Shown: piece after piece, positions 46,258-62,051 of the stretch
Numbering within the stretch: position 1 is the stretch's first letter
Layout of the letters: each line of letters begins with the position of its first letter
The notes under the pieces: model-generated
Seen by the model: only the letters and a program-made list of their open reading frames with translations
Told to the model about the DNA's origin: nothing
The model's database searches: none
Source of the DNA: Anaerolineae bacterium
GTDB lineage: Bacteria; Chloroflexota; Anaerolineae; Epilineales; Epilineaceae
Assembly (NCBI GenBank): GCA_029262755.1
Contig: JAJCYU010000008.1
Location: 114-64,113, forward strand
DNA: 64,000 nucleotides
Direction: 5' to 3'
Made by a program: the position numbers and the translations under genes

Positions 46258-46926
46258 CTACTCCGCGAACACCGGCAGGTGTCCCAGCGCCAGGACGTGC
46301 TGCCAACGATCGGGGTCGCCCTCGGTGAAGACCGCCATCTCGGCGGCGATGCCGGCGCCCGCGCGTTGTAGGATGTCGTGCATCGCGGCGAGCGTGCTGC
46401 CGGTAGAGATCACGTCATCGACCAGGACGGCGCGCGCGCCTTGCAGGAGGGGGCGGTCTTTCGCGTCCAGGACAAGCTGCTGCTCGGCGCCCGTGGTAAT
46501 GCTCTTGGTCGTGGCGCGGAGGCTTTCGCCCATGTAGGGCTTCCAGGACTTGCGCAAGATGACATGCGGCAGGCCGCTGCGCCGGGCCATGGCGTAGGCC
46601 AGCGGGATGCTCTTGGCCTCGGCGGTCACGAGGACCGTGGCATCGTCCGGCAGCATCGCGCACAGGCCCTTCGCGGCGGCCTCCGTGACCTCGACGTCGC
46701 CGAGCATGTTGAACACGGCGATCGAGACGCCCGGCGCGACCTCGAAGAGCGGCAGATCGCGGCGGAGGCCGTCGATCGTGACGGGCCACGTGGTGGGGGC
46801 TGGCGCGGATGCAGGGTTAGGGGGGTGGGCGGGAGTCGTGGCGGGATTCGTAGCGGGTTCGGCGGCGGGAGACGGCGCAGGGGAGGCGGGATCGCGCGCT
46901 TCGGTCGGATGATCGCCGGCGCTCAT
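46258..46926 (-). CDS. Phosphoribosyltransferase-domain protein (type I PRTase)
   Basis: PRPP-binding loop [17 protein letters not shown]. Start at the internal ATG ([10 protein letters not shown]); the upstream extension is Arg/Pro-rich. The start overlaps the hutU stop. Confidence 0.6.
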
Positions 46927-48659
46927 GCGTCTTCGTCCGCGCGCATCGGGATGCGCAGGCCTTGGGCGCGGGCTGTGTCCAGCGCGATGTCGTAGCCGGC
47001 GTCCGCGTGGCGGAAGACGCCGAGGGCGGGGTCGTTGGTGAGGACGCGCTCGATGCGCGCGGCGGCTTCCGGGCTGCCGTCCGCCACCACGACCTGGCCG
47101 GCGTGCTGCGAGAAGCCGATACCCACGCCGCCGCCATGGTGGAAGCTGACCCACGTGGCGCCGCTGGCGACATTGGCCATGAGGTTGAGCAGCGGCCAGT
47201 CGGAGACCGCGTCCGTGCCGTCCTTCATGCCCTCCGTCTCGCGCCGCGGGCTGGCCACGGAGCCCGTGTCCAGGTGATCGCGGCCGATGACCAGCGGCGC
47301 AGAGATCCGGCCGTCTGCCACCGCGGCGTTGAAGGCCAGGCCGGCCTGCGCGCGCTCGCCTTGGCCGAGCCAGCAGATGCGGGCCGGCAAGCCCTGGTAC
47401 GCGACGCGCTCGCGGGCCATGTGCAGCCAGCGGTGGAGGGGTTCGTCGTCGGGGAAGAGCTTCGCCACGATCTCGTCGGTGACGTCGATGTCCTTCGGAT
47501 CGCCGGACAGTGCCGCCCAGCGGAAGGGGCCCTTGCCCTCGCAGAAGAGCGGGCGAATAAAGGCCGGGACGAAGCCGGGAAAGTCGAAGGCGTTCTCGAC
47601 CCCGGCATCGAAGGCGCGCTGGCGCAGGTTGTTGCCGTAGTCGAACACGATCGAGCCGCGCTCCTGGAAGGCGAGCATCGCGCGTACGTGGTCGGCCATG
47701 GATGCCATGGACTCGCGTTCGTAGGCGACGGGATCCGCGCTGCGCAGAAGGTCGGCCTCCTCGGGCACGAGGTGGTGGGGGACGTAGGCCATCACGTCGT
47801 GGGCCGGCGTCTGATCGGTCACGATGTCGATTGCGTAGTCGGCGCTAAGGATCGTGGGCAGGATTTCAGCCGCGTTGCCGAGCAGGCCGATCGAGAGCGC
47901 TTCACCGGCCTCTTTAGCACGGGTAGCCCGTTCGAGCGCTTCCTCCACGTCGGCGGTCCACGTGTCCAGATAGCGGGTCTCGATGCGCCGCTCGATTCGC
48001 TGCTGGTCGACTTCCACGACGATCGCGACACCCTCGTTCATCGTCACGGCCAGGGGCTGCGCGCCGCCCATGCCGCCGAGGCCCGCGGTGAGCGTGATCG
48101 TGCCGCGCAGGCTGCCGCCGAAGTGGCGGCGGGCGCATTCGGCTAGCGTTTCGTAGGTGCCCTGCAGGATGCCCTGGGTGCCGATGTAGATCCATGAGCC
48201 GGCCGTCATCTGCCCGTACATCATCAGGCCCTTGGCCGCGAGGTCGTCGAAGTGCTCCTGCGTGGCCCAGTGGGGAACTAGGTTGCTGTTGGCGATCATC
48301 ACCCGTGGCGCGTCGGCGTGGGTGCGGATGACCCCGACCGGCTTGCCGCTTTGGACCAGCAGCGTTTCGTCGTCCGCCAGACGACGCAGCTCATGCACGA
48401 TCGCGTCGAAGGCCTCCCACGAGCGCGCGGCTTGGCCGCGCCCGCCGTATACGACGAGCTGGTCGGGGATCTCGGCCACTTCCGGATCGAGGTTGTTCAT
48501 CAGCATCCGCAGCGCCGCTTCCTGCAACCAGCCGCGGCAGGAGATCGTGGTGCCGCGCGGGGCGCGTACGGTGCGCGCGCCGGAAGGGGCCGCGGGGGAC
48601 ACCGGGGCCGCAGGCGGTGGAGCGGCTGAAGGGACGGAGGAGGGGGAGGGCGAGGGCAT
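46923..48659 (-). CDS. hutU: Urocanate hydratase
   Basis: [32 protein letters not shown]...[14 protein letters not shown]... matches the full-length HutU pattern (579 aa). Confidence 0.85.
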
Positions 48660-48879
48660 GGCGGCTCCGGGCTGCAATCTGCTGAGGGGGCAGACAGGGG
48701 GCATTCCGTGGGTTGGTTGACGCGCGTCCCGCAGGATCGGCCGGCCCGTGCAACGAAGCGGGCAATCGCGGAAACACGGGGTGGCTATGGTGCCACACGG
48801 GCCAGGGCGGCACAACGGAATCCACGCGCCATTGCGCCGCGCGATCGGCTATACTCGCGCTGGGTCGCGACTTGGATTA

Positions 48880-49075
48880 TGACGTGGCCCACGCCCCGTG
48901 GCGGGGGAAGTCCGGTGAGAGTCCGGCGCTGTCGCGCAACGGTAACCACGCTCGCCGCGAGTGGATGGAATGGGGAGATCGGCCTAGACGTCGGCCACCC
49001 TGATCGCTTCGCTCGCACTTCGTGGAAGCCCGAGTACCCGTCCGGTGGTGTTCGTCCCATCAGCCCTCGCGTACC
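48880..49075 (+). ncRNA. Cobalamin (AdoCbl) riboswitch candidate in the 5' leader of the DUF4430-like/ECF operon
   Basis: GGGAAGTCCGGTGAGAGTCCGGCGCTGTCGCGCAACGGTAA matches the cobalamin-riboswitch core (GGGAA..GGTG.AA.TCC..GC.G.C.CGCAAC.GTAA). The downstream GGAAGCCCGAGTACCCGTCC is a degenerate B12-box-like segment. Confidence 0.55.
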
Positions 49076-49199
49076 GGGGCTCGCGGACGAGGACCGGACG
49101 ACCCGGACCGTGAGCGTGCCCGACACGCAACGGCCGACGTAGCGGCCCCCGCCCTCGGCACCCCGGCGCACCGACCCCCGTGCCGGAGGCGCCGTCTCA

Positions 49200-51568
49200 T
49201 GAATACCCGTATTCCTGGTCCCCGTTTCAACCAAGTTCCCCCTCCATCCGCTAGCCTGAGCACGCGATCCCTGCGATCGTCACAGCTCGCCCGCCATGTC
49301 GCGCGCCTCTTCGCGCCCCGCCGGGCGCGCGGCCCGATCGCCGTCGTCGCGCTTGGGGCCGGCTTCGCGCTCGCCCTTGTACTTGGTGGGGCTTGGGCCG
49401 GGCCATCGGGGCCCTGGGGGCCCGGTGCGCTCGATGCGCATGGTGGCTTGGACGTTGACGTCGTGGTGGATTTCGGCGACGGGCGCGTCGAGGTGGCGCA
49501 CCTGGATGCGATCTCCGGGACGACGGCGCTCGACGCGCTGTACGCCACCGGGCTCGAGGTCGTGACGCACCACGCCGGCTTCGGGTTGGCCGTGTGCAGC
49601 GTGGGCGGTGTCGGCTGTCCGGCGGACGATTGTTTCTGCGCCTGTCAGGGAGAGGACTGCCGTTTCTGGGGCTTCCAGCACGGCGACGGGGCGGGGGGCT
49701 GGACGAGCGCGGCCGAAGGGGCGGGAGACTTCCTCCTTCCCGAGGCGGGGTCGGTGCAGGGCTTCGTATGGGGTCGGCCCGCGCCCATGGCGTGGACGCC
49801 CGAGCGCTTGGGTGCGATGAACGCGTGGACGTGGCTGCGCGGACAGATCCAACCGGACGGCGGACTCTTCGACCCTGGGCTCACCTTGGACGGCCTGCTG
49901 GCCGCGCGGGCGGTGCAGGCGGATCCTGCCGGCTGGCGCGCGGGCGACGGCGGGCCGAGCGCCGTGGATAACGTGCGCGCCGCGGCAGGCAGCTACCCCG
50001 CAATCGGTGCGGCGCAGGCGGGCAAGTACCTGGCCGGGTTGGCGGCGTTGGATCAAGGCCGGGTCACGCCGGAGGAACTCGCGAGCGCCAGGGCGCAGAC
50101 GCTCAGGACCGTCGACCTTGGGTCCGGGCGTTTTGGCGCGTCTGTTTGGGACCAGTCCTGGGCGATGATCGGCCTCGCAGCCTCGGACTTGCCCATCGGC
50201 GTGACGTGGATCGCGGCCTTGGAAGCGGAGGCGGCGGCCAGCGGTGGCTGGGGCGATCTGCCGGGCGCCGAAAGCGCGAGCCCGGACGCGACCGGCCTGG
50301 CACTGGCGGCGCTCGGCGCGGCCGGGGCGTCGGAGAGCCCCGCCGTAGCGCCGGCCTTGGCGTGGCTGACTGCGACGCGCCACGCGAACGGCGGCTGGGG
50401 CGGCGACGGGTCGGGCGATACGCCGGCCGGCAACGTGAACTCGTCCGCGTTGGTGGTCACCGGCCTGCTGGCCGTGGGCGAGGATCCGCGCGCAACACCG
50501 TGGACGGTCGATGGCGTGGGGCCGCTTACCTACCTGGCCTCGACACAGGAAGCCGAGGGCTTTCTTCTCCATACCCCCGATGCCAGCGAGCTGCTGGCCA
50601 CGCTGCAGGCAATCCCGGCGATGTCGGGACGCAGTCCCTTGCTGCGCGGCGCGGCGGTTTCGAGCGCACGCGCGGTGCAGGCGGCCCTGGACGAGCGGCA
50701 GATGAGCGGCGCCTTCGCGGCCGGTTTCATCGAGGGTGGTCCGGCGGCGACGATCGATGCGCTGCTTGCGCTGCATGCGGCCGGCGTGGATCCGGAAGAA
50801 GCGTTGGAGCAAGGTGCGCTCAGCGTGACCGCGTGGCTGATCGCCGAAGGTCCCGCCTACGCGCTGTCGGGCGCCGAGGGCGCAGGCCGGGTCGCGGCGG
50901 CGGCGGTGGCGTTGGGTCTCGACCCCGCGAACGTGGGCGGCGCTGACATCGCGGCGACCTTGGCCGGGCATCTCGACGCCGTGACCGGCCTCTTCGGGGA
51001 CGGCGCAACCGCGTCCCAAGCGTGGGCAATGATCGGCTGGTCGGCGTTGGGGCGCGACGTGCCGGACACCGTCATCGATGCGCTAATGGCGTTGGCCGGC
51101 GACGGCGGCTGGAGCATCGGCGCCGGCGCGCCCGTGGCGGACGCCGACAGTACGGCGCTCGCGCTTGAGGCGCTCGTCGCGGCGGGGCTGTCGGCCGATG
51201 ACGTGCGGGTGCGCGGCGTGGTTGCGGCACTCGGCGGCTTCCAGGATGCGAGCGGTGGCTTCCGCGGCCTCTTCGGCATCGCCAGCGCAGACACGACGGC
51301 GCGCGCGATCGTCGCGCTATCGGCGGCGGGCCAGCACGTCGACGCTCCGGGCTGGGCGCGCAGCCGCGATGGCCTGCGCTGGACGACGCCGCGCGAGGCG
51401 CTGACGGCGATGCAGTTGCCGAACGGACACTTCCCCGGCCTCGGCGACCAGCCGGATCCGAGCGCGACTTACGTGGCCCTGCGCGGCCTGGTCACGCGCG
51501 CGGAGTACGTGGCGCCGGAGGCCTCCGGTGGTCGCGTGTACCTGCCGTTGCTGGTGCGCCCGCGATGA
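49200..51568 (+). CDS. Secreted protein: N-terminal DUF4430-like (BtuG/transcobalamin-like) domain plus prenyltransferase/terpene-cyclase-like alpha/alpha-toroid repeats; C-terminus GRVYLPLLVRPR
   Basis: CPADDCFCACQGEDCRFWGFQH is the DUF4430-like Cys motif. Repeats ASGGWGDLPGAES, ANGGWGGDGSGD, GDGGWSIGAG. Signal-like IAVVALGAGFALALVLGGAWA. Confidence 0.65.
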
Positions 51569-53250
51569 GGCGGCGCTTCGGAGCGGTGGTCAAGGCAGTA
51601 GCAGGGGCGGGGCGAGCGAGCGGGGTTGCGCGTTGGCGGCGCATGTCGCGCTCGGAGCGGGCGCTGCGATCCGGTCGGCCGCGTCCCTCGCGCCCGCGAC
51701 CCTCGCGCCCGCGACCCTCGCGCCCGCGACCCTCGCGACCCTCGCGACCCTCGCGTCGCTCGCGATCGGTAGCGTCCGCCGCGCTTTCGACCCTCGTCGT
51801 CGGTCTAGCGGTGTTTGCTACGTTCGCAGCGGGCAGTAGCGGAGGCGGTGGCAGTGGCGGCGGAATTCGCGCTGAATTTGGAGGCGGTGGCAGTGGCAGT
51901 GGCAGCGACGGCGGTCGTGACGGTGGTCGCGACATCGGCCGCGACTCAGTGGCGGGGCGCATCCGTGCACTGTGGGCGGTGTCCGGCGTGGCGGCGCAGG
52001 AGGCGCCGGCGTTGGCCGGTCTCGTCGTCGCGATGCCGGATGGGTCGACGTTGGAGGCCTGCGTGGCCTTGGATGCGGACGAGATCAGCGGCGAGGAGTT
52101 GCTTGCGCGGGCTGGTGTGGTCGTCGGCGCGCGACGGACGCCGTTGGGGGCCATGGTCTGCGCGCTGGACGGACAAGGCTGCGATCATCCGGTGGAGCCT
52201 TGCTGGTGCGAGTGTCGCAGCCTGGGCGAAGACTGCCGTTATTGGGCATACCACGTGCGCGAGGAAAGCGGCTGGCGCTACGCGCCGCTCGGCCCGAGCG
52301 CCCGCCGGGTCGGCCACGGTGACGTGGATGGCTGGGCATGGGGCGCCGGCACCATCGCAAGCGGCGCCCAGCCGCCCGAGCGAACGTTTGCTGAGCTATG
52401 CGCGGCCGGTGCGACGGGCTCAGCGCCGGGTGGTGCAGCGCGTGGCGCACCAGGCGGTGCGACGGCAGGTGCGAGCGGATCGAACGCGCAGGCAACGCAG
52501 GCGGCGGTCGCTTCGCAGTCAGCGCGGGCGACGGCGGCAGCGCGGTCGGGCGGCGCCGCGACGCGGCCGGCGGAACCGGGGGGCGGTCGCGATGGGCAAA
52601 CTGGACGTGCTGGAGATGGGAGAAGGGAGGATGGTCGGAGCGGAGAAGGCCCGACGGAGGTAGGCGGTGCGGGTTCCTCGAATGGAACGGTGGTCGCAGA
52701 TTCGAGCCTGAGCGCGGGGTCCGGCGACGGAATGAGCGCTGGGACGCGGGACGCAACGGGTGCGGGCGCCCCCGGGGGCTCCGGGGGCTCCGATGGCGGC
52801 GGGGGACCCGACGCGGGAGCGAGCGACGGGGTGGATCTGGATGGCGCGGACGCGCAAGGGCCGCCGGCGATGGGCGCCGGTGCGTCGAGCGGCCGTACGA
52901 TCGCGACGCCGGGTGGTGGCGCGGGATCGGCGGGCGGGCGCACGGGTGATGCAGATCGCGCCGGCGACGGAGGTGCGGCGCCGGGGGCCGGCGCGTCTCG
53001 CGGCGGCGGTCGCGGGGACGGCGTGGCGGACGGTGGGATAGGCACCGCGGGTGGCGATCTTGAGCGCGGTGACTCTGACGGTGACGATCGCAATGGTGAC
53101 GATCGCGACGGTAACGATCGCATTGGTGACGATCGAGACAGCGGCGGCTTCCTTAGCGTGGGAGCCGCGGCGCGATCCGATGCGCTCTTTGGGGTGCTGG
53201 TCGCCGGGCTGCTGATCGCCGGGCTTGTTTGGTTGCGGCGGACGGTTTGA
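51565..53250 (+). CDS. Second DUF4430-like domain protein with extensive low-complexity tandem repeats and a C-terminal TM anchor
   Basis: EPCWCECRSLGEDCRYWAYH is the paralogous motif. SRPRPSRPRP and NGDDRDGNDRIGDDRD repeats. C-terminal helix LFGVLVAGLLIAGLVWL. ATGA overlap with the upstream gene. Confidence 0.6.
   Translation: MRRRFGAVVKAVAGAGRASGVARWRRMSRSERALRSGRPRPSRPRPSRPRPSRPRPSRPSRPSRRSRSVASAALSTLVVGLAVFATFAAGSSGGGGSGGGIRAEFGGGGSGSGSDGGRDGGRDIGRDSVAGRIRALWAVSGVAAQEAPALAGLVVAMPDGSTLEACVALDADEISGEELLARAGVVVGARRTPLGAMVCALDGQGCDHPVEPCWCECRSLGEDCRYWAYHVREESGWRYAPLGPSARRVGHGDVDGWAWGAGTIASGAQPPERTFAELCAAGATGSAPGGAARGAPGGATAGASGSNAQATQAAVASQSARATAAARSGGAATRPAEPGGGRDGQTGRAGDGRREDGRSGEGPTEVGGAGSSNGTVVADSSLSAGSGDGMSAGTRDATGAGAPGGSGGSDGGGGPDAGASDGVDLDGADAQGPPAMGAGASSGRTIATPGGGAGSAGGRTGDADRAGDGGAAPGAGASRGGGRGDGVADGGIGTAGGDLERGDSDGDDRNGDDRDGNDRIGDDRDSGGFLSVGAAARSDALFGVLVAGLLIAGLVWLRRTV
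51684..51760. repeat. 15-bp (CCTCGCGCCCGCGAC)n and 9-bp tandem repeats within a coding region
   Basis: Direct reading; encodes SRPRP repeats. Confidence 0.7.
53080..53138. repeat. 15-bp tandem repeat (GGTGACGATCGCAAT-like ×4) within a coding region
   Basis: Encodes NGDDRDGNDRIGDDRD. Confidence 0.7.
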
Positions 53251-56200
53251 GGGCAGGGGGCGCGGGCGCAGCGGAGGGATCGATCGCGCCGAGGCGAGCG
53301 GTGGCGCGATCGTCAGGCGGCTGGGGTGCAGGTCTGCCGCTGGTGGGCGTTTCTGTGGTCGCGGCAGCGGCCATCGCGTGGCCGTTCTGGGTGCCGCTGG
53401 CGGCGGGGGCGGCGGAGCGCTTGGCGGGCGAGGGCGGCTCGGCCCTCGGGCCCTACCTGGACGGCGCCGGCGCCGCCGCGACGGCGTCTTGGGCGGGGCC
53501 GTTGCTCCTCGTCCTGTGCGCGCTGGTGCTCGTGCGGGAGGCGGCGGTAGGCATGGGGCCCAAGGCGGTGGCCTTGCTTGGGGCGCTCGCCGCGCTGATG
53601 GCGGCTTTGCGCGTGGTCGAGACGATCGTGCCCGGGCCGGGCGGCTTTTCGCCGGTCTTCGCGTTGATGGTGTTGGCCGGCTACGGCCTCGGCGCGCGCT
53701 TCGGCTTCCTTGCCGGCGTGCTCGGCATGACCGTCTCGGCACTGGCGACGGGCGGCGTCGGGCCGTGGCTGCCCTATCAGGCCATCGCGGCCGGTTGGGT
53801 CGGCGGCACGTCGGGGCTGTTGCCGGGCGCGGGGGGCGAAGGTAGAAGACGCGACGTCTCACGGCGCCGGCTTCTTTGGCTCGCAGCCTTCGCCGCTGCC
53901 TGGGGCTTCGGCTATGGGCTGGTGCTGTCGCTCTGGGGCTGGACGTGGCTGGAGGGTGGCGCGGCGGCCGGGCCCGAGGGCGCGTTGGGCTGGGTCGCAT
54001 CACGTGCGGCGATGGCCCGCTTCGGCCTCTTCTACCTCGGCCTTTCGCTGGGCTGGGACGCATTCCGCGCGGTCGGTAACGCGGCGTTGGTCTTGGCCGT
54101 CGGCGGCCCCGTCCTCGCAGCGCTATGGCGCATGAAGCGCTGGCTCTCGGTCGGCGTGGTGGAGGGCGATGGGGTCGACGGGAGCGACGTGGTCGACGAG
54201 AGCGACGTGGTCGACGAGGGCGATGTGGTTATCGAGAGCGACGTGGTCGACGAGAGCGACGTGGTTGTCGAGAGCGACGTGGTCGTCGCAAGCAACGCGG
54301 TCGACGGGAACCGCGCGGTCGACGGGAACCGCGTGGTCGACGGGAACCGCGTGGTCGGTGCGAGATACAACGAACCGAACGCGAGTAGCGCGGTCTCCGC
54401 TCTTTCCGGCCCGGCGCCCGCGGTCGTGTGGGTCGCGTGGGTGGTTGCGGTGGCGGTGGTGGCTTCGGTGACGCGCAATCCGTGGATCTTGGCGTTGGCG
54501 TGGCTCGTGGTCGAGGTCGTGCGGGCGGCGGTGGCGCGTGGGGCTGCGGCGCCGTTTTCGGTGGCGCGGATGGCGCCGTGGATGATCGGGCTCGCGGCGG
54601 TGTACAACCTCGTCTTGTCGCGCTCCGGGGAGACCGTATTGCTGCGGGTGCCCGCGGCGTGGCCGGTGGTCGGGGGCGCGTGGACGGGTGAGGCGTTGGT
54701 CTACGGGGCATCGACGGGATTGGCGCTGGTCGTGTTGGTGGCGGCGTTTGTCACGTTGCAGGTGGCGGTCTCGCCGCGGGATCTCGTTGCCTTGGCGCCG
54801 CGGGCCTTTGCGGGGCCTGCGATCGTGACCGCCGTTGCGCTCAGCTGGTTGCCTGCGCTGCACACCCGTTGGAACGAGGCGGCCGAGGCGCGCGCGCTAC
54901 GCGGTTTCGGGGAGCGAGGACCGCGGGCGTGGCTGGCCCTGCTCGGGCCGGTGATCGTGGGCTCGTTGGAGCAGGCGACGGAGCTGGCTGAGTCCATGGC
55001 GGCTCGTGGTTTGGTGGATGCGCGTGCACCGTCCTTGGCCCGTCGATGGGCGGCCGGCGTTGGTCTGGCGATCGTCGCCGTCGGGTTGCTCGGGCCATGG
55101 GCCGAGAGCCTGGTACGGTGGGCGATGATCGGTGTGGGAATCGCGTTGCTGGCAGCGGGGCTGCGCGGCGGTGCGGGAGCCGGGCCCCGTCCCACCCGAC
55201 TGCGCGGCGGCCGGTGGCGCAAGCGCGACGTGGTGGTGCTTGCGGCCGTGCTTGGTGCGCTGCTGCTCGTGCTGTTGGTGCCCTCGGTGGCCATCGCGAC
55301 GCGGTGGCAGCCCTACCCCCGACTCTCGTGGCCGCCTGCGCCCGCGCTTGCGGTCCTCGCGGTCACGCTACTGGTCGCGCCGGCGGTGGGGGCGCGGTTG
55401 CGGGTGAGAGGGCCGATAGGGCGAGAGACGGGCCGCCGTCCGCGTGGGGCTCGGCGCAAAGCGGAGGGGGAGGGGACGAGGGCGAGCGATGGGCGATACG
55501 CGGAGTCGGCGGGAGGCACAGATAGACGGTCGCGGCTGCAGTCGGAGCGGCTGCTGGCGAAGCGGGTGCAGGCGGAGGGGGTGCAGGCGGCGCGGGTGTC
55601 GCGCGGGTCCGGCGGGGTTGCGACGAGCGTCGAGAGGGCGCTTGGCGATAGGTCGCTTGGCGATAGGTCGGGCGGAGATTGGGAGAGCGCAGAGAAGGCG
55701 AGCGTCGAGACGAAGAGCGTCGAGAGGGCGAGCAGTTACAAGACGAGCGTCGCCAAGCCGAACGTTGGGCTCGGGCCCGAGATCCGGTGGTCTGACGTCC
55801 GCGTACGCTATCCGGCGGACAGTGCGGACAGTGCGGACGGTGCGGACGGTGCGGACGGTGCGGACGGTGCGGACGGTGCGGACGGTGCGGACGGTGCGGA
55901 CGGTGCGGACGGTGTCGGCGGTGTCGGCGGTGCGGATGCCGCGTGGGGGAGCGCCGTCTTGGACGGGGTTGACGCTCGTGCCCTCGCAGGGGCGTGGACC
56001 TGGGTGGCGGGGTCGAGTGGGGCGGGCAAGTCGACGCTGTTGCGGACGGTGAACGGGTTGGTGCCGCACTTTACGGGTGGGCGGATCGAAGGCGCCGTGC
56101 GGGTTGGGGCGCACGATCCGATACGCACGGGGCCGGCGGGCATGAGCCGTGTCGTCGGCTTCGTCGCGGGCGATCCGGAGGCGCGTTCGATCGCGACGCA

Positions 56201-57467
56201 CGTGGCGGATGAGGTGGCCTTTGCCATGGAGCGGCAGGGGTGGCCGCGGGCGCGGATGGAGCGTGAGGTCCGCGCGGCGTTGCATCGCGTGGGGCTGGTG
56301 GGCTTCGAGGCCAGGCGGCTCGCTACGCTCTCGGGCGGGGAACGGCAGCGGGTGGCCGTCGCCGCGGCTATGGCGGCCGGGGCGGAGGTGCTCGTGCTCG
56401 ACGAGCCGACATCGCAGCTGGACGACGAAGCGGCCGCAATCGTGTTGGACGCCGTGCAGCGTCAGGCCGAGGCGGGCGTCACGGTGCTCGTGGCCGGGCA
56501 CCGGGCGGCACGGCTTGCGCCCCGGGCGACACGGGCGCTGAGGCTCGCGCGCGGGCGGGCGGAGATCGTGGATCCGTTGGCGCTCGCAGCGCGAATGGAG
56601 GTGGAAGAGCGAGAGCTGCTGGATGCCGTGCGCGGGGCGCGTGGTCGGGCTTCCGTGAAGACCGTAGATCGCGAGGCCGTGGAAGATGCGGTCGACGGGC
56701 TATGGGGGCGTGACGCGGACAGGTCGTCGCTTCCGCAGGCCGCGGCCCGCGGCGCCGGTGCGTCGTCGCCCGCCGAGGTAGCGGATCGTGATGCGGTCGT
56801 GCTGCTGCGGGACGTGACCTTTGCCTGGCCGGCCGCGGATGGAGAGGCAGAGCGCCTCGTGTTGGATGGGGTGAACCTTCACGTGCGGCCGGGGGAAGTC
56901 GTGGCGTTGGCGGGGGCGAGCGGAGCGGGAAAGACGACGTTGCTGCGCATCGTGCTTGGGCTGCTCGCTCCACGGTCCGGCGACGTGCTCGTTCAAGGCC
57001 GGCCCGTGACGGGAGGCGCCGCGGGCGTGATCGGACGGATCGTCGGCTACGTGCCGCAGCATGCGGCGACGATGATGTTGACCAGCAGCGTTCGCGAAGA
57101 GCTGCGCCTTACGCGCCGCGGCCATGGCCTTCCCGAGGCCGAAGACCGCGGGGCGATCGACGCGTTGCTCGAGCGGCTGAGGCTGGGTGAGCTAGCCGAG
57201 CGCGACCCCCGTGACCTGAGCACGGGGCAGCGGCAGCGGGTGGCCGTAGCGGCTAGCGCCGCGGGCCGGCCGGCGGCGCTGCTATTGGACGAGCCGACGC
57301 GCGGGCTCGACACGGCGGCGCTTGCCGCGGTTCTACGGGAGCTGCACGACGTGGCCGCGGAGGGAACGGCAGTGCTCGTCGCGAGCCATGACCGCCGCGT
57401 CCAGCAGGCGGCGCATCGGATCGTGACGCTGCGCAAGGTCGGCGACGATCTTGGGCTGGTGCGCTGA
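53229..57467 (+). CDS. Single 1412-aa ORF that appears to fuse all ECF-transporter modules: S-component-like membrane domain, EcfT-like transmembrane domain, and two ABC ATPase domains (EcfA-EcfA'), joined by tandem-repeat linkers. Candidate cobalamin ECF importer (CbrT/CbrV/CbrU-like)
   Basis: S-like region: GPKAVALLGALAALMAALRVV...FALMVLAGYGLGARFGFLAGVLG. T-like region: LEQATELAESMAARGLVDARAPS. ATPase 1: GSSGAGKSTLLRTV...LSGGERQRVAVAAAMAAGAEVLVLDEPTSQLD. ATPase 2: GASGAGKTTLLRIV...LSTGQRQRVAVAASAAGRPAALLLDEPTRGLD. There is no in-frame stop for 4.2 kb. The start (TTG at 53229) is uncertain. Confidence 0.6.
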   Translation: MVAADGLRAGGAGAAEGSIAPRRAVARSSGGWGAGLPLVGVSVVAAAAIAWPFWVPLAAGAAERLAGEGGSALGPYLDGAGAAATASWAGPLLLVLCALVLVREAAVGMGPKAVALLGALAALMAALRVVETIVPGPGGFSPVFALMVLAGYGLGARFGFLAGVLGMTVSALATGGVGPWLPYQAIAAGWVGGTSGLLPGAGGEGRRRDVSRRRLLWLAAFAAAWGFGYGLVLSLWGWTWLEGGAAAGPEGALGWVASRAAMARFGLFYLGLSLGWDAFRAVGNAALVLAVGGPVLAALWRMKRWLSVGVVEGDGVDGSDVVDESDVVDEGDVVIESDVVDESDVVVESDVVVASNAVDGNRAVDGNRVVDGNRVVGARYNEPNASSAVSALSGPAPAVVWVAWVVAVAVVASVTRNPWILALAWLVVEVVRAAVARGAAAPFSVARMAPWMIGLAAVYNLVLSRSGETVLLRVPAAWPVVGGAWTGEALVYGASTGLALVVLVAAFVTLQVAVSPRDLVALAPRAFAGPAIVTAVALSWLPALHTRWNEAAEARALRGFGERGPRAWLALLGPVIVGSLEQATELAESMAARGLVDARAPSLARRWAAGVGLAIVAVGLLGPWAESLVRWAMIGVGIALLAAGLRGGAGAGPRPTRLRGGRWRKRDVVVLAAVLGALLLVLLVPSVAIATRWQPYPRLSWPPAPALAVLAVTLLVAPAVGARLRVRGPIGRETGRRPRGARRKAEGEGTRASDGRYAESAGGTDRRSRLQSERLLAKRVQAEGVQAARVSRGSGGVATSVERALGDRSLGDRSGGDWESAEKASVETKSVERASSYKTSVAKPNVGLGPEIRWSDVRVRYPADSADSADGADGADGADGADGADGADGADGADGVGGVGGADAAWGSAVLDGVDARALAGAWTWVAGSSGAGKSTLLRTVNGLVPHFTGGRIEGAVRVGAHDPIRTGPAGMSRVVGFVAGDPEARSIATHVADEVAFAMERQGWPRARMEREVRAALHRVGLVGFEARRLATLSGGERQRVAVAAAMAAGAEVLVLDEPTSQLDDEAAAIVLDAVQRQAEAGVTVLVAGHRAARLAPRATRALRLARGRAEIVDPLALAARMEVEERELLDAVRGARGRASVKTVDREAVEDAVDGLWGRDADRSSLPQAAARGAGASSPAEVADRDAVVLLRDVTFAWPAADGEAERLVLDGVNLHVRPGEVVALAGASGAGKTTLLRIVLGLLAPRSGDVLVQGRPVTGGAAGVIGRIVGYVPQHAATMMLTSSVREELRLTRRGHGLPEAEDRGAIDALLERLRLGELAERDPRDLSTGQRQRVAVAASAAGRPAALLLDEPTRGLDTAALAAVLRELHDVAAEGTAVLVASHDRRVQQAAHRIVTLRKVGDDLGLVR
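54171..54357. repeat. 18-bp perfect tandem repeats (GACGAGAGCGACGTGGTC-like ×6, then GACGGGAACCGCGYGGTC ×3), in-frame in the linker between the S-like and T-like modules
   Basis: Encodes DVVDESDVVDEG... and VDGNRAVDGNRVVDGNRVV. Confidence 0.75.
55815..55935. repeat. 9-bp perfect tandem repeat (GCGGACGGT/GCGGACAGT ×~12), in-frame linker before the first ATPase domain
   Basis: Encodes ADSADSADGADGADGADGADGADGADGADG. Confidence 0.75.
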
Positions 57468-57852: not shown

Positions 57853-58294
57853 CGGCGCAAAACGCGCCGTAGCGAGCTGAGCTCGGCGTGAAATCCCGCT
57901 CGCCGGCGGCCTTGGATCACCCGTGTTTCGGAGACCCGTGGCCATCGTCACGCGGCGCGAATAGGCGGGTCACAGCGCGTAAGAAGCACGTCTCGATACG
58001 CGTCTATATATTATACCGCGATGGCGTGCTTGCCCTCGACGGGTGATCTCGGCTCGGCGTCCACTCCCATCTCGAGACACACCTCCCCGCATTACCCCCT
58101 CGTCGTTTCTTTCCTCACCCTCACCCTCATTCCCACCCTCCATCCGATCGAGCCTGTGCTCCGGTTCCCGTGTTCACGCGGAAGCCGGGTTGCGGCGTTC
58201 GGTCCCCAGCGCGGTGTTCGCGCACCCCATGCCATGTCGCATCGCCCGAGAGGTCTCGGGCGCAAACCGTAGGAGCAAGACCTTCTTCACCACG

Positions 58295-59182
58295 ATGGAT
58301 CGACGTTGGACGTCCACCCCCTCACCCATTCAGGCCCCCACCGTGCGTGACGCCAGCCGGCGCGCACGGTACTTGGGAGCTGCCTTGTCCGTGCTTGCGT
58401 TCAGCCATCTGGCGGCCTGGAGTTTCGGCTCGTTGCCGCATAGCGCCGCCAACGACGCGGCGCGCATCGAGGCCGCCGCGCGTGGCACCGCCGTGGCGAT
58501 GGTTGCCACAGCCATCGCGCCAGCCGGGCCGTCCGGCGCCATCGCGTCAAACGCCGGTCTCGGCGTCTCGGGCGCGGCTAGCACTTCGTCCCTGCCCACC
58601 ACCATCGACATCGCTTGGCTGCCCGACACGGTGCAGGTGTGGGAGGAGCGGCTCGTTGCGGCCGGCGCGCGTTGGCGTGTCGACCCGGCGTTGCTTGCAA
58701 TCGTGATGCTCGTTGAATCCGGCGGCAATCCGGCCGCACGAAGTCCCGCCGGCGCCGTCGGCCTGATGCAGGTCATGCCGGCGACGGCAGGCGATATCGC
58801 ACGACTGCGCGGCCTCGCTGCGCTCTCCAGTCGGCAGCTTGTCGATCCGGAGACCAATATCGAGTTCGGCGCCTGGTACCTGGCGCGGCAGTTGGCCAGC
58901 TTCGGCTCCGCGGACGATCCCGATTGGCAACGCTCGGTGGAGCTTGCGGCCGTCGCGTACAACGGCGGCCCCGGCAGCGCTGCGTCGTGGCAACGTGGCG
59001 GCTACGTGCCCGCAGAGGCGCGTCGATACCGGGTCTGGGTTGGCGGCATGTGGTCCGAGAGGGCCCTGCCGACGTCCCCGACCTACGCACGCTGGCTCGA
59101 CGCCGGTGGCGCCTACCTTGTCGATCGAGCGCGATCCGTGCTCGACCCGGCGAATGGGGGCACGACGTTGGCGAGCGGGTGA
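58295..59182 (+). CDS. Lytic transglycosylase (SLT-domain) with an N-terminal membrane/signal segment
   Basis: VESGGNPAARSPAGAVGLMQVMPATA is the SLT catalytic motif. Hydrophobic LGAALSVLAFSHLAAWSF. AGGAG lies upstream; the annotated ORF extends further upstream through implausible sequence. Confidence 0.7.
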   Translation: MDRRWTSTPSPIQAPTVRDASRRARYLGAALSVLAFSHLAAWSFGSLPHSAANDAARIEAAARGTAVAMVATAIAPAGPSGAIASNAGLGVSGAASTSSLPTTIDIAWLPDTVQVWEERLVAAGARWRVDPALLAIVMLVESGGNPAARSPAGAVGLMQVMPATAGDIARLRGLAALSSRQLVDPETNIEFGAWYLARQLASFGSADDPDWQRSVELAAVAYNGGPGSAASWQRGGYVPAEARRYRVWVGGMWSERALPTSPTYARWLDAGGAYLVDRARSVLDPANGGTTLASG

Positions 59183-59534: not shown

Positions 59535-62051
59535 CTACTTCGGCCCGTTGGGTCCGTAGCGGTCCAAGAACAACATGCGTGCCGTGAGCGGGATATAGAT
59601 CGATTCCGGCGGCGGTGGGGCGATCGTCGGGATTGCGGTCGGGCGCGTCGGTGCCGGCGTCGGCGTGACGGGCGTTGGGGTGGGGCCGGTTGCGGTCGGG
59701 GTGGGGGTAGGGACCGTCGGCGTGACGCGGGGAGTCGGGCTTGCGGGGGGGAGCAGCGAGGGTAGGAGGTCGCTCCAGCCCCAGGCGATCACGAAGGCGC
59801 CGCCGTCGCGGGTGCCGCGGACGTCGTAGCCGGGCTCGGCGGCAACGAGGTCGGGTGCGCCGTCCGCGTTTAGGTCCGCGATGGCGAGGGCGTCGCCCAG
59901 GCGTAGGTTGGCTTCCAGGCCTTCGCGCAGCGGCCACATCTCCGCGCCGATGGCGTGGGCCCTTCGTAGACGAGGACCCGATGGGGAGCCGGGGACGACG
60001 TAGAGTGCGCCCGCGGCGGGTTGGCGGTCGCGCGACATGTCCGGCGCGCCGACGACGAGCTCGGGGAACGTGTCGCCGTCCAGGTCGCCGGCGGCGAGCG
60101 CGCTGCCGAAGGCCGTGCGAGGACCGGGGGCGTCGGGGAAGGCGGGCAGGTCCTGATGCACGAGCATGGTGCGCGCGTGGTCGATGCCATCTGGGGAGCC
60201 GAAGAGGACGAGCACGTCGCCCGCTTCGCGCGCGCCCGAAACGGACGCGCCGGGCGAGGCGATGACGAGGTCCGCGAAGCGGTCGCGGTCGAAGTCGGTC
60301 GCGAGCAGGCGGCCGCCGAAGTGGCCGTTGCGTTCGGCGGAGCCGGGCAGGTCGTCCACGTCGCGGCTGAGCTCCGTCACGCGATCGACGAGCAAGGTGT
60401 TGGTCACGCCCTCGCCGGCGCTGTAGGCCAGGAGCACGATGCCCGCGCCGCGTGCGCTGCCGGCGATGCCGTCCGGCGCGCCGACGACGAGATCGGCCAG
60501 GCTGTCGCCGTCCACGTCGGCCAGGGCGAGGGTGGTGCCCAGGCCCTCGCTGGCAACCGGGTCGCCGGGGATCGTTTCGGGTTCGCGGTCGAACTGCAGG
60601 GAGCCGACGAGCAACGGGCCGGCATCGAGGCGGCCGGGCAGCACGTAGACGCGGCCCGCACCGTTGCGCCTGGCGACGTTGGCGCCCGGGGCGCCTGCCG
60701 CCAGGTCGTCGATGCCGTCGCCGTTGAAGTCGCCGACCGCGAGGGATGCGCCTAGCCGGTCACCCGGACTGGCCGGGGGGCCGAAGGGGCGAGGCTGTCC
60801 GAGGAGGCCGCCGGCGGCGCCCTCCCACAACCAGAGGCCGCCTGCGTCGTTGCCCGCCCGGTCGGAGCGGGGGGTGCCGATCACGAGGTCGTCGTAGTCG
60901 TCGCCGTTGAAGTCGCCGACGGTCAACACGGCGCCCCATTGCAGATCGACCTCGCTGCCCGGGCTCTGTTGAATGGCGCCGGGGAACGCGCGCCCGCCGC
61001 GTACGACGCTCAGCCAGCCGCCGACCGAGGCCGCCTCGTCGTCTAGGACGGAGGCTACCGCCAGGTCGGGAACGAGGTCGCCGTTGAAGTCGCCCACGGC
61101 CAGCGTCTCGGCGAAGCCCTGCTGGGGCAGCACGGGCCGGCCGACGTCGGTGCGCACGTAGGTGCGCGGGGTCCAGGCGAGGGACCATGCGGCGGCGGGC
61201 CAGCGTGCCACCGCGATCTCGACGGCGTCGAGCAGCGCCGCGTCGTGCAGGGCGCGCTCGTCGGGGACGGCGAAGACCGCAAGCGCAAGGCCCGCCGCCT
61301 GCGCGTCGCGGATCTCGGCGACGTCCTGCTCGGAGTCCAGACGCCCGTCGGCCAGGTCCAGCGCGATGCCCTCAGCGCCGGCCGTGCTCGCCTTGTCCCA
61401 GTCGGAAGGTGTGCGCAGCACGAGCCAGCGATCTGCCGCGGGGAGGCCGGCGGCCAGGGCGGCGAGCGTGCTCAGGTTGGCGGTGGCGAAGCGAACGCGG
61501 TTGCCGGCGCCCGCCGCGGAGACGGCCGCGAGCACGGCGGCCGGGTCGACGCCTTCGCGCAGGTGGAGCGTAAGTGCCAGCGGATCGGCCGGGTCGCCCG
61601 CGGTGGCGGCGAGCGCCTCGGCGAGGCGCGGCACGGTCTCGCCGGCGAAGGCGATGCCGAACCATGCGCCGGCGTCGCAGCGCTCGATCTCGGACATCGG
61701 GCGTTCGATAACGAGGCCCGTGCAATCGGTCGTGCGGTCGAGGGACTCGTCGGCCAGCAGCAGCGGGACGCCGTCCGCGCTGGCGCGCACGTCGAGCCAG
61801 GCGCGGTTGGTTCCCTCGTCGCGCGCGGCGCGTAGGGCGGCTAGCGTGTTTTCCGGCGCTTCGGAGGACAGGCCTCGCCACGCGGACAGGCGCGCGACAT
61901 CCGGATGGTCGCGTGGGCCCGCCGCGACACGGCTGCGCAGCACGGGGGCGAGCATCGCCAGCAGGGCCAGCAGCAGCGCGAAATGAATGGCGCGCAGCGG
62001 CGTACAGCGCGCCGCGGCGAAACGCGGACGGCGCGGGAAGAGGCGGCTCAC
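59535..62051 (-). CDS. Secreted glycerophosphodiester phosphodiesterase (GDPD) domain protein with multiple FG-GAP (integrin-alpha-like) repeats and a C-terminal PT-rich linker
   Basis: GDPD N-terminal region HPDVARLSAWRGLSSEAPENTLAALRAA. FG-GAP repeats VGDFNGDGIDDL, VGDFNGDDYDDL, ADVDGDSLADL, GDLDGDTFPEL. Signal LLLALLAMLAPVL. Confidence 0.75.
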   Translation of the reverse strand: MSRLFPRRPRFAAARCTPLRAIHFALLLALLAMLAPVLRSRVAAGPRDHPDVARLSAWRGLSSEAPENTLAALRAARDEGTNRAWLDVRASADGVPLLLADESLDRTTDCTGLVIERPMSEIERCDAGAWFGIAFAGETVPRLAEALAATAGDPADPLALTLHLREGVDPAAVLAAVSAAGAGNRVRFATANLSTLAALAAGLPAADRWLVLRTPSDWDKASTAGAEGIALDLADGRLDSEQDVAEIRDAQAAGLALAVFAVPDERALHDAALLDAVEIAVARWPAAAWSLAWTPRTYVRTDVGRPVLPQQGFAETLAVGDFNGDLVPDLAVASVLDDEAASVGGWLSVVRGGRAFPGAIQQSPGSEVDLQWGAVLTVGDFNGDDYDDLVIGTPRSDRAGNDAGGLWLWEGAAGGLLGQPRPFGPPASPGDRLGASLAVGDFNGDGIDDLAAGAPGANVARRNGAGRVYVLPGRLDAGPLLVGSLQFDREPETIPGDPVASEGLGTTLALADVDGDSLADLVVGAPDGIAGSARGAGIVLLAYSAGEGVTNTLLVDRVTELSRDVDDLPGSAERNGHFGGRLLATDFDRDRFADLVIASPGASVSGAREAGDVLVLFGSPDGIDHARTMLVHQDLPAFPDAPGPRTAFGSALAAGDLDGDTFPELVVGAPDMSRDRQPAAGALYVVPGSPSGPRLRRAHAIGAEMWPLREGLEANLRLGDALAIADLNADGAPDLVAAEPGYDVRGTRDGGAFVIAWGWSDLLPSLLPPASPTPRVTPTVPTPTPTATGPTPTPVTPTPAPTRPTAIPTIAPPPPESIYIPLTARMLFLDRYGPNGPK

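Follow-up and report, generated by a model that had tools for sequence, protein, structure and literature searches.

A riboswitch-led operon for transcobalamin-like surface proteins and a single-chain ECF transporter in a Chloroflexota bacterium, a probable corrinoid capture-and-import system

Organization of the operon

We analysed a stretch of 64,000 nucleotides (nt) from an Anaerolineae bacterium (assembly GCA_029262755.1, contig JAJCYU010000008.1, positions 114 to 64,113), hereafter called the window, which has a G+C content of ~70% and whose closest relatives are metagenomic Chloroflexota. The subject of this study is an operon of three tightly packed open reading frames (ORFs) on the + strand of the window, which is preceded by a cobalamin riboswitch and predicted to encode two surface proteins and an energy-coupling factor (ECF) transporter. 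Coordinates refer to the window, and all features of the operon lie on its + strand. According to the ORF list, gene 1 (49199-51568) starts with ATG and encodes a protein of 789 amino acids (aa), identical to the NCBI-called protein P0001, which is predicted to be exported or anchored and to carry a soluble-ligand-binding β-grasp (SLBB) domain, two α/α toroids and a YLP-type tail. Gene 2 (51565-53250, 561 aa) is predicted to encode a membrane-tethered SLBB protein, and its orthologues follow the gene 1 orthologue at the related loci L001-L003. Gene 3 (53229-57467, 1412 aa) was delineated by its ORF and domain matches as a single-chain ECF transporter with the module order S-T-A-A'.

The leader of the operon consists of the riboswitch aptamer (48845-49059) and a region read from the sequence as expression platform and ribosome-binding site (49060-49198), in which a GGAGG (49185-49189) stands 9 nt ahead of the gene 1 ATG. 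Genes 1 and 2 share an ATGA overlap (51565-51568), and gene 3 overlaps gene 2 through a TTG start, located either at 53229 (22-nt overlap) or at 53247 (TTGA). An initial annotation of this DNA, made from the sequence alone, had described a B12-riboswitch-led operon of two surface proteins and an ECF-type transporter, and all of these features are present. It had also placed ATGA coupling at the entry into the transporter gene; the ATGA is actually found at the gene 1/gene 2 junction.

Cys-rich SLBB domains of genes 1 and 2

Both surface proteins contain a Cys-rich domain, which spans aa 84-192 in gene 1 (49448-49774; delineated with the AlphaFold2 model and Foldseek) and aa 147-280 in gene 2 (52003-52404; SCO2322/PF28005-type). 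The characteristic strings are CFCACQGEDCRFWGFQH at aa 145-161 of gene 1 and CWCECRSLGEDCRYWAYH at aa 213-230 of gene 2. The two domains align by BLASTP with an E-value of 1e-8 and 29% identity, which makes a chance likeness untenable and indicates that they are paralogous. The Cys patterns recognised in the initial annotation thus mark homologous regions. That each protein begins with this domain does not hold for gene 2, where it starts only at aa ~147, behind an N-terminal region rich in Pro, Arg, Ser and Gly and behind a hydrophobic segment.

Sequence searches were blind to the fold of these domains, which became visible by structure prediction alone. Pfam hidden Markov models (HMMs), in a set that did not contain PF28005, gave no match to either Cys domain at E<=10, DUF4430 (PF14478) included, and a domain profile gave none among the PDB sequences. 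The NCBIfam model of the SCO2322 family (NF040672) matched gene 2 with an E-value of 2.8e-7, at 31 bits against a cutoff of 85 bits. The Pfam family PF28005 'SCO2322' is recorded on 22 of the 25 matches of the domain profile, which are small Chloroflexota proteins, and, as a weak match, on the L001 and L002 orthologues. An exhaustive HMM search recovered 4,661 cluster representatives (50% identity) with an SCO2322-type domain at E<=1e-3, so the family is large. Its typical stand-alone member consists of a signal peptide, the ~130-aa domain, a linker and a C-terminal transmembrane (TM) anchor with a basic tail. Multi-SLBB architectures also occur, with two or three SCO2322-type domains in each of the proteins P0155-P0160 (480-1020 aa).

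AlphaFold2 modelled the gene 2 domain with a pLDDT of 94.8 and full-length gene 1 with a pLDDT of 85.8 and a pTM of 0.83. The predicted topology of the domain is strand-strand-helix-hairpin-(Cys loop)-three strands. Both models contain the β-hairpin after the helix that is the defining mark of the transcobalamin-like SLBB clade (PMC1796856). In a fold comparison, the domain model scored highest with 3u7z of R. gnavus (12.4), a DUF4430 representative, followed by haptocorrin (11.8), intrinsic factor (11.5) and the transcobalamin β-domain (11.3 and 11.1); the next best matches were generic β-grasps at 6.5 and below. The top 18 Foldseek matches were the same transcobalamin-type set, and the gene 1 model matched the isolated transcobalamin β domain 5no0 with a TM-score of 0.76. 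Judging by these models, the Cys-rich domain is a transcobalamin-β-like SLBB (β-grasp) domain, and the SCO2322 family is a Cys-rich, HMM-invisible branch of the transcobalamin-like SLBB clade that is newly recognised here. Of the DUF4430-like fold initially proposed for these domains, the transcobalamin-type β-domain is borne out by the models and Foldseek, whereas the DUF4430 HMM itself does not match.

Across the family, C133, C145 and C147 (gene 1 numbering) are invariant and C140 is nearly so, while two more Cys are frequent. The conserved Cys fall mostly within an insertion that has no transcobalamin counterpart. Because the domain is predicted to be extracytoplasmic, disulfides are the default reading of this Cys loop. 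Beyond that, it could act as a thiolate cobalt ligand or redox site, by analogy with BtuM, in which a Cys plays such a role.

Two α/α toroids in gene 1

Behind its SLBB domain, gene 1 encodes a first toroid at aa ~201-500 (49799-50698), identified by a family profile and Foldseek, and a second at aa ~514-765 (50738-51493), identified by a second stretch of the profile and a helical hairpin pattern in the model. Three GGWG/GGWS repeats are present, together with weak Pfam and TIGRFAM matches to SQHop_cyclase and Prenyltrans. The family profile matches squalene-hopene cyclase (SHC) with an E-value of 1.9e-32 in two separate regions. By Foldseek, gene 1 matches SHC/prenyltransferase toroids with E ~3e-6 and TC:CD320 with E ~8e-4. 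The prenyltransferase/terpene-cyclase-like GGWG repeats pointed out in the initial annotation are accordingly modelled as two α/α toroids, which places them in the fold class of the transcobalamin α-domain. Neither the DxDD nor the DDxxD catalytic motif was found in gene 1. None of the window proteins matched Pfam Cobalamin_bind, and the stand-alone toroid of the cassette at L006 showed a faint match to the eukaryotic Cobalamin_bind family (E 0.008). Transcobalamin itself holds B12 between its α/α toroid and its β-domain (PMC1796856).

A single-chain ECF transporter

Gene 3 begins with an S-component module of ~6 TM segments by hydropathy (aa ~30-320, 53316-54188), which matches PF07155 at 26.8 bits (gathering score 26.7) and PF12822 at 25.3 bits. 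A linker made of an 18-nt tandem repeat in 10.9 copies (54162-54357, translated as …DVVDES… repeats) leads to the T-component (CbiQ/EcfT) module at 54381-55403, where PF02361 matches aa 400-594 with 26.7 bits (gathering score 25) and a home-made HMM agrees. Following a second linker of 13.6 copies of a 9-nt tandem repeat (55815-55936, GAD repeats), two ABC ATPase modules, EcfA and EcfA', occupy 55941-57443; they match PF00005 in two stretches (E 1.2e-52) as well as TIGR01166, TIGR04520 and TIGR04521. The S, T and two ABC_tran modules are thus all contained in one ORF, the arrangement of a dedicated (group I) ECF system. The complete S-T-A-A' fusion recurs at L001, L008, L011, L012 and L013. 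Covalent attachment of the S-component to the rest of the transporter is unusual and is relevant to models in which S-components are released and exchanged.

The S module has 147 homologues, Streptomyces included, and the sources that name them call them S components; one Streptomyces homologue is labelled 'ABC transporter permease'. CbiM and CbiN gave no match in gene 3 or its S module at E<=10, which speaks against the CbiMNQO class that the initial annotation had named as the outcome contradicting its proposal. Its call of a fused ECF-type transporter agrees with these results. On the basis of its domain matches, gene 3 is a vitamin-type ECF system with its own S-component and not a CbiMNQO transporter.

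Conservation and variants of the cassette

A genome scan with a narrow peptide alignment yielded 66 loci, and the tally of riboswitches and cassettes covered 74 sources. Nearly all of the 66 loci belong to Chloroflexota (Anaerolineales, Ardenticatenales, Caldilineae, Chloroflexales, Dehalococcoidia and Thermomicrobiales), and a few to Actinomycetota. With home-made HMMs, the order toroid, SLBB, ECF was found on one strand at most of these loci, the ECF part varying in the arrangement of S, T, A and A; overall, this order recurs at ~70 loci.

The surface proteins occur in several builds. Besides the simple pair of one toroid and one SLBB protein (1:1), we found SLBB-toroid-toroid plus SLBB (the window, L001, L002, L008, L009, L011, L012, L015 and L019), toroid-toroid-SLBB plus SLBB (L003, L004, L024, L025, L028 and L061) and SLBB-toroid plus SLBB (L017, L030 and L066). 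Toroids and SLBB domains are hence fused in both orders. Their counts are mostly equal across the variants, at 1:1 or 2:2, as would be expected if each toroid pairs with one SLBB domain. At L015 and L019, the S and SLBB matches share a single stop-to-stop ORF. A PduO-type cob(I)alamin adenosyltransferase follows the ECF genes at L006.

In Streptomyces sp. R08 (L007), the cassette reads riboswitch, toroid, SLBB, T, A-A', S. NCBIfam assigns two of its proteins to the SCO2321 family membrane proteins (559 bits) and the SCO2322 family proteins (197 bits). The latter (L007:3554-4153) aligns with its C-terminal half first (YRYWSFW…GDVQGF…ICA) and its N-terminal half second (RIALVIDFG…LLCAI…GC). Since the halves align in swapped order, the Streptomyces SCO2322 protein looks like a circular permutation of the Chloroflexota SLBB domain. 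Its tail weakly matches the GPS-CTERM sorting domain.

A cobalamin riboswitch in the leader

A whole-window Rfam scan at the gathering threshold gave no match. An E-value scan of the leader found the cobalamin riboswitch family RF00174 at 48845-49059 (28.8 bits against a gathering score of 31.5, E 3.4e-5), with the full model covered and an enlarged peripheral insertion. The leader holds the conserved core GGGAAGUCCGGUGAGAGUCCGGCGCUG and a B12-box-like 3' element AAGCCCGAGUACCCGUCC. A covariance model of the lineage (R1), built from eight compact matches with the window excluded, matched the window leader at 48874-49013 with 46.7 bits and an E-value of 2.3e-8.

All four gene 1 homologues for which DNA was available have a Cobalamin match directly upstream, with scores of 62 (L004), 32.6 (L002), 27.7 (L001) and 24.6 bits (L003), the last being clipped by the contig end. 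The Streptomyces cassette at L007 has a Cobalamin riboswitch at 35 bits, and seven of ten further diverse loci reach at least the Rfam gathering score; in all, the leaders of L002, L004, L007, L008, L017, L025, L036, L046, L068 and L072 pass it. With R1, a match of at least 30 bits on the cassette strand, 138-687 nt 5' of the first cassette gene, was present in 56 of the 74 sources. Nine of the 18 negative sources have less than 300 nt of upstream DNA, so that 56 of the 65 sources with upstream DNA are positive. In an alignment of 57 leaders, 89.9% of the cells were paired compared with 32-46% when the partners were slid. Cells changed on both sides numbered 212 (66 expected), and none of 500 shuffles was as good. 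This comparative evidence of conservation and covariation settles at the sequence level that the leader is a real cobalamin riboswitch. The riboswitch call of the initial annotation is therefore upheld, the element lying 5' of the interval annotated at the time.

The ECF genes retain a riboswitch even when they are split from the binder genes. At L045, the ECF operon is inverted relative to the SLBB gene and lies apart from it, with a riboswitch of its own in front (13095-13234, -); at L042, a riboswitch lies between the SLBB and S genes (2134-2284). Two riboswitches stand in tandem at L030 (3863-4018 and 4685-4843).

A promoter and terminator scan of the window leader found neither, and in particular no intrinsic terminator, so translational control through the ribosome-binding site is the likely expression platform. 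The minimum free energy z-score of the leader (-0.02) was uninformative.

Export, tether and surface attachment

N-terminal hydrophobic segments and features suited to surface anchoring are present in both binder proteins. In gene 1, a hydropathy scan located an N-terminal helix at aa 47-65 (49337-49393; helix 48-65 in the model), a putative signal peptide or signal anchor (…GGAWA|G). In gene 2, the SLBB domain is followed by a low-complexity tether of ~250 aa rich in Gly, Ala, Asp and Arg (52405-53163), which is variable and poorly aligned in orthologues and whose DNA contains tandem repeats at 53077-53139. A C-terminal TM anchor, predicted by hydropathy at aa ~534-557 and followed by RRTV (53164-53235), completes the protein. 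Tandem repeats and hydropathy thereby confirm the low-complexity repeats and TM anchor that had been ascribed to gene 2. The same combination of TM segment and basic tail is found on stand-alone family members.

Gene 1 ends in RVYLPLLVRPR (51533-51565), a tail that resembles the NCBIfam 'YLP-box putative sorting motif' (NF050076/NF053834) and scores 9.2 bits with NF050076 against a cutoff of 15 bits. This type of tail is conserved in P0001-P0005, and the homologous tails at L025 and L043 score above the cutoff (15.0-17.6 bits). Cassette proteins at L026, L028, L047 and L061 carry YLP-type tails as well. Such C-termini are ~20-fold enriched in the cassette, occurring on 15 of 143 SLBB/toroid proteins and on 37 of 6898 other ORFs. 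In stand-alone SLBB proteins, the YLP-type tail stands where the C-terminal TM anchor otherwise sits, which suggests that it is an alternative surface-attachment signal.

Elsewhere in the window, a GDPD + FG-GAP repeat protein (59535-62051, -) contains IYIPLTAR 15 residues from its C-terminus, which may be a second YLP-type tail or reflect a miscalled ORF end.

Proposed function

From these results, we consider it probable that the operon encodes a riboswitch-repressed, high-affinity corrinoid capture-and-import system of a monoderm-type bacterium. The RNA, the folds, the domain order and the conservation of cassette and riboswitch were computed; from them we infer the ligand, the pairing of toroid and SLBB domain, the hand-over and the direction of regulation. 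Following the usual OFF-switch logic, the leader riboswitch would permit translation of the operon at low intracellular levels of adenosylcobalamin. Once exported, the gene 1 protein would be retained at the surface through its N-terminal helix, its YLP-type tail or both, displaying one SLBB domain and two toroids, and the gene 2 protein would display the second SLBB domain on its ~250-residue flexible, membrane-anchored tether. One corrinoid might be sandwiched between a toroid and an SLBB domain, in the manner of transcobalamin, intrinsic factor and haptocorrin, and two toroids with two SLBB domains would give two binding modules. The bound corrinoid would presumably be passed to the dedicated S-component and then be imported with ATP by the fused EcfT-EcfA-EcfA' motor.

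Several observations weigh against this interpretation. No riboswitch was detectable at L005 and L020, and L006 and L016 gave weak matches alone. Genes under the control of cobalamin riboswitches include those for cobalt transporters and B12-independent isozymes, so the RNA by itself leaves the ligand unfixed. The toroids are nearer to terpene cyclases and prenyltransferases than to the transcobalamin α-domain, the Cys-rich loop inserted in the SLBB domain has no counterpart in transcobalamin, and both Cys domains escape the Pfam HMMs, that of DUF4430 included. When the S module was compared with the PDB, both as a single sequence and as a 25-sequence profile, no S-component was significant (best FolT, E 0.76); it has no detectable similarity to CbrT, the PDB being expected to include ECF-CbrT, whose structure is solved (PMC5997447), or to other solved S-components. 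In the searchable literature, which leaves out most subscription journals, we found no binding or transport data for the SCO2321 and SCO2322 families and no functional paper on SCO2321-SCO2325 or DUF4430. Finally, the only studied operon of the same architecture, that of L. sakei, was reported to take up heme and not B12 (10.1101/864751).

The main rival is therefore the scavenging of heme or another non-corrinoid tetrapyrrole, in which toroid and SLBB domain would bind heme and the ECF transporter would import it. The L. sakei operon Lsa1836-1840 has the same parts, namely S, a fused A-A', T and two exported transcobalamin β-like and α-like proteins, and its deletion impaired heme accumulation (10.1101/864751). 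ECF-type heme import is also known in S. lugdunensis (PMC7299338). However, the heme-binding role of the L. sakei α- and β-like proteins rested on docking, not on measurement (10.1101/864751). At the loci studied here, the linkage to the riboswitch, found 5' of the cassette in the large majority of sources with upstream DNA, weighs against heme. In the neighbourhoods viewed, no iron- or heme-related genes were seen adjoining the cassette, and at L006 it is adjoined by the adenosyltransferase. We thus regard heme uptake by the window operon as unlikely. Because of the riboswitch linkage seen here, the question of heme versus corrinoid in L. sakei is worth re-examining.

We give a similarly low chance to surface handling of corrinoids without net import by this system, be it sequestration or hoarding to keep them from competitors or the capture of incomplete corrinoids for remodelling (cobinamide, other cobamides), with the ECF transporter carrying a related but different substrate. 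Toroid and SLBB genes do stand behind a riboswitch with no ECF genes nearby at L004, L031, L044, L050 and L051. ECF-CbrT carries cobinamide as well (PMC5997447), and Bacteroides employs multi-protein extracellular corrinoid relays. At most loci, however, the binder genes adjoin the ECF genes and point in the same direction, and they often overlap or are fused, as at L015 and L019. A shared ligand is the more economical reading, because ECF S-components are the substrate-binding, translocating subunits.

Cobalt transporters are classic targets of B12 riboswitches, and the T and A modules of gene 3 match models named CbiQ and cbiO, as would suit an importer of cobalt or nickel ions of the CbiMNQO/NikMNQO class accompanied by unrelated envelope proteins (genes 1 and 2). 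CbiQ and CbiO are, however, generic names for ECF T and A components, the S module fits the vitamin-type PF07155 and PF12822, and genes 1 and 2 are conserved members of the cassette with a predicted B12-binder fold. We rejected the CbiMNQO reading for its missing CbiM/CbiN signal and consider ion uptake very improbable. Least probable of all is a terpenoid or prenyl-lipid enzyme, as automatic annotations ('prenyltransferase beta subunit', 'squalene cyclase repeat protein') and the matches of gene 1 to SQHop_cyclase, Prenyltrans and the squalene-hopene cyclase profile would have it, since the DxDD and DDxxD motifs are absent, the context is extracytoplasmic with anchoring signals, and the toroids are fused to or paired with SLBB domains under riboswitch control; this reading, too, was rejected.

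Returning to corrinoid capture and import, a broader proposal, which we put forward more tentatively, is that the SCO2321-type toroid, the SCO2322-type SLBB domain and a dedicated ECF transporter jointly form the principal unrecognised high-affinity corrinoid route of Chloroflexota, Streptomyces and other Actinomycetota. They might be viewed as a 'split bacterial transcobalamin', with its α and β halves on subunits that are separate, tethered or permuted. The window would then represent a two-site capture variant with one SLBB domain on a 'fishing-line' tether, feeding a single-chain S-T-A-A' transporter.

Comparison with known systems

Bacterial surface proteins that combine an SLBB domain and a toroid in either order were predicted to be B12 binders as early as 2007, in a survey by Burroughs, Balaji, Iyer and Aravind that assigned the clade chiefly to low-GC Gram-positives, planctomycetes and some Euryarchaea (PMC1796856). 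The SCO2322/PF28005 family described here, in contrast, comes from Chloroflexota and Actinomycetota, has a distinct Cys pattern and is missed by the DUF4430 HMM; in addition, its linkage to a riboswitch and an ECF transporter is documented for ~70 loci. With transcobalamin, intrinsic factor and haptocorrin, the B12 carriers of animals (PDB 2bb5, 2bb6, 2pmv, 4kkj and 5no0), the window proteins share the same two predicted folds. Here, these folds lie on separate chains or are fused in either order (gene 1 being β-α-α), the SLBB domain bears a Cys-rich loop, and the sequences of the toroids are more akin to those of terpene cyclases. The proteins of the window are predicted to be tethered to the membrane or surface and to serve an ECF importer, whereas transcobalamin is taken up by receptor-mediated endocytosis.

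The L. sakei operon differs from the window in its reported substrate (heme), the lack of any mention of a riboswitch, its transporter-first order and its Firmicute host. Its β and α units are single and separate, and it lacks the Cys-rich loop, the double toroid, the long tether and the fusion of the whole transporter.

ECF-CbrT of Lactobacillus delbrueckii is a proven importer of B12 and cobinamide, and its cbrT gene sits in the cluster nrdJ-cbrS-cbrT-pduO (PMC5997447). Should cbrS encode an exported SLBB/DUF4430 protein, this cluster would be one more precedent. Like ECF-CbrT, the proposed system is an ATP-driven ECF vitamin importer with a genomic link to B12 metabolism, and a pduO gene adjoins both cbrT and, at L006, the ECF genes of the cassette. 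The ECF module with which CbrT works is a shared one (group II), and no extracellular binder is known for CbrT, whereas the window encodes a dedicated, fused module and two candidate surface binders.

The proposal also resembles BtuG-BtuB (and BtuH) of Bacteroides, in that a surface binder of very high affinity for B12 would feed a membrane transporter under B12-responsive control (PMC6143338, PMC10404256, PMC8941943). The folds and the envelope are unrelated, however. The initial annotation had equated DUF4430 with the fold of BtuG, which is in fact a seven-bladed β-propeller lipoprotein on the outer-membrane TonB-dependent transporter BtuB (PMC6143338); the models of the window proteins are a β-grasp and toroids, a pair that would act on an ECF transporter of the cytoplasmic membrane.

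The closest counterpart is the same cassette in Streptomyces, SCO2321/SCO2322 (NCBIfam NF053823 and NF040672; L007), which differs in its single toroid, its separate transporter subunits and its apparently permuted SLBB domain, and for which NCBIfam gives no function. The suggestion that such a system had not been characterised holds in part. With the binders predicted in 2007 (PMC1796856) and the L. sakei operon studied (10.1101/864751), this kind of system was already known or predicted, whereas we found no functional paper on SCO2321/SCO2322. New here are the systematic link between SCO2322 SLBB domains, SCO2321-type toroids, dedicated ECF transporters and cobalamin riboswitches across Chloroflexota and Actinomycetota, and the build found in the window, in which a double toroid and two SLBB domains are combined with a long tether and a one-chain transporter.

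Apart from BtuFCD, ECF-CbrT, BtuM and the mycobacterial BacA, little is known, to our knowledge, of how most monoderm and environmental bacteria obtain B12. The present analysis provides a concrete candidate function for two widespread families of unassigned function, of which the SCO2321-type is now annotated 'prenyltransferase/squalene cyclase repeat'. If it is correct, corrinoid cross-feeding could be predicted better in habitats with abundant Chloroflexota (soils, sediments, wastewater and hot-spring mats), and corrinoid binding by the transcobalamin fold could be studied in bacterial relatives. Some ECF mechanisms assume that the S-component is released or exchanged, and the S-T-A-A' single chain offers a natural case on which to test them.

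Neighbouring genes

An SLT-family lytic transglycosylase (58043-59182, +) lies just 3' of the operon, with a counterpart at L001 (17537-18685) and a more distant one in Streptomyces L007. As a cassette member it was common to the window and L001 alone among the 74 sources and was rejected; not being found at other loci, it is probably outside the system. Upstream, a urocanase (HutU; 46923-48815, -) and a phosphoribosyltransferase-domain protein (46258-47154, -) are divergent neighbours of the operon. These genes, which have no evident link to B12, are a case of lineage synteny and occur likewise at L001 and L002.

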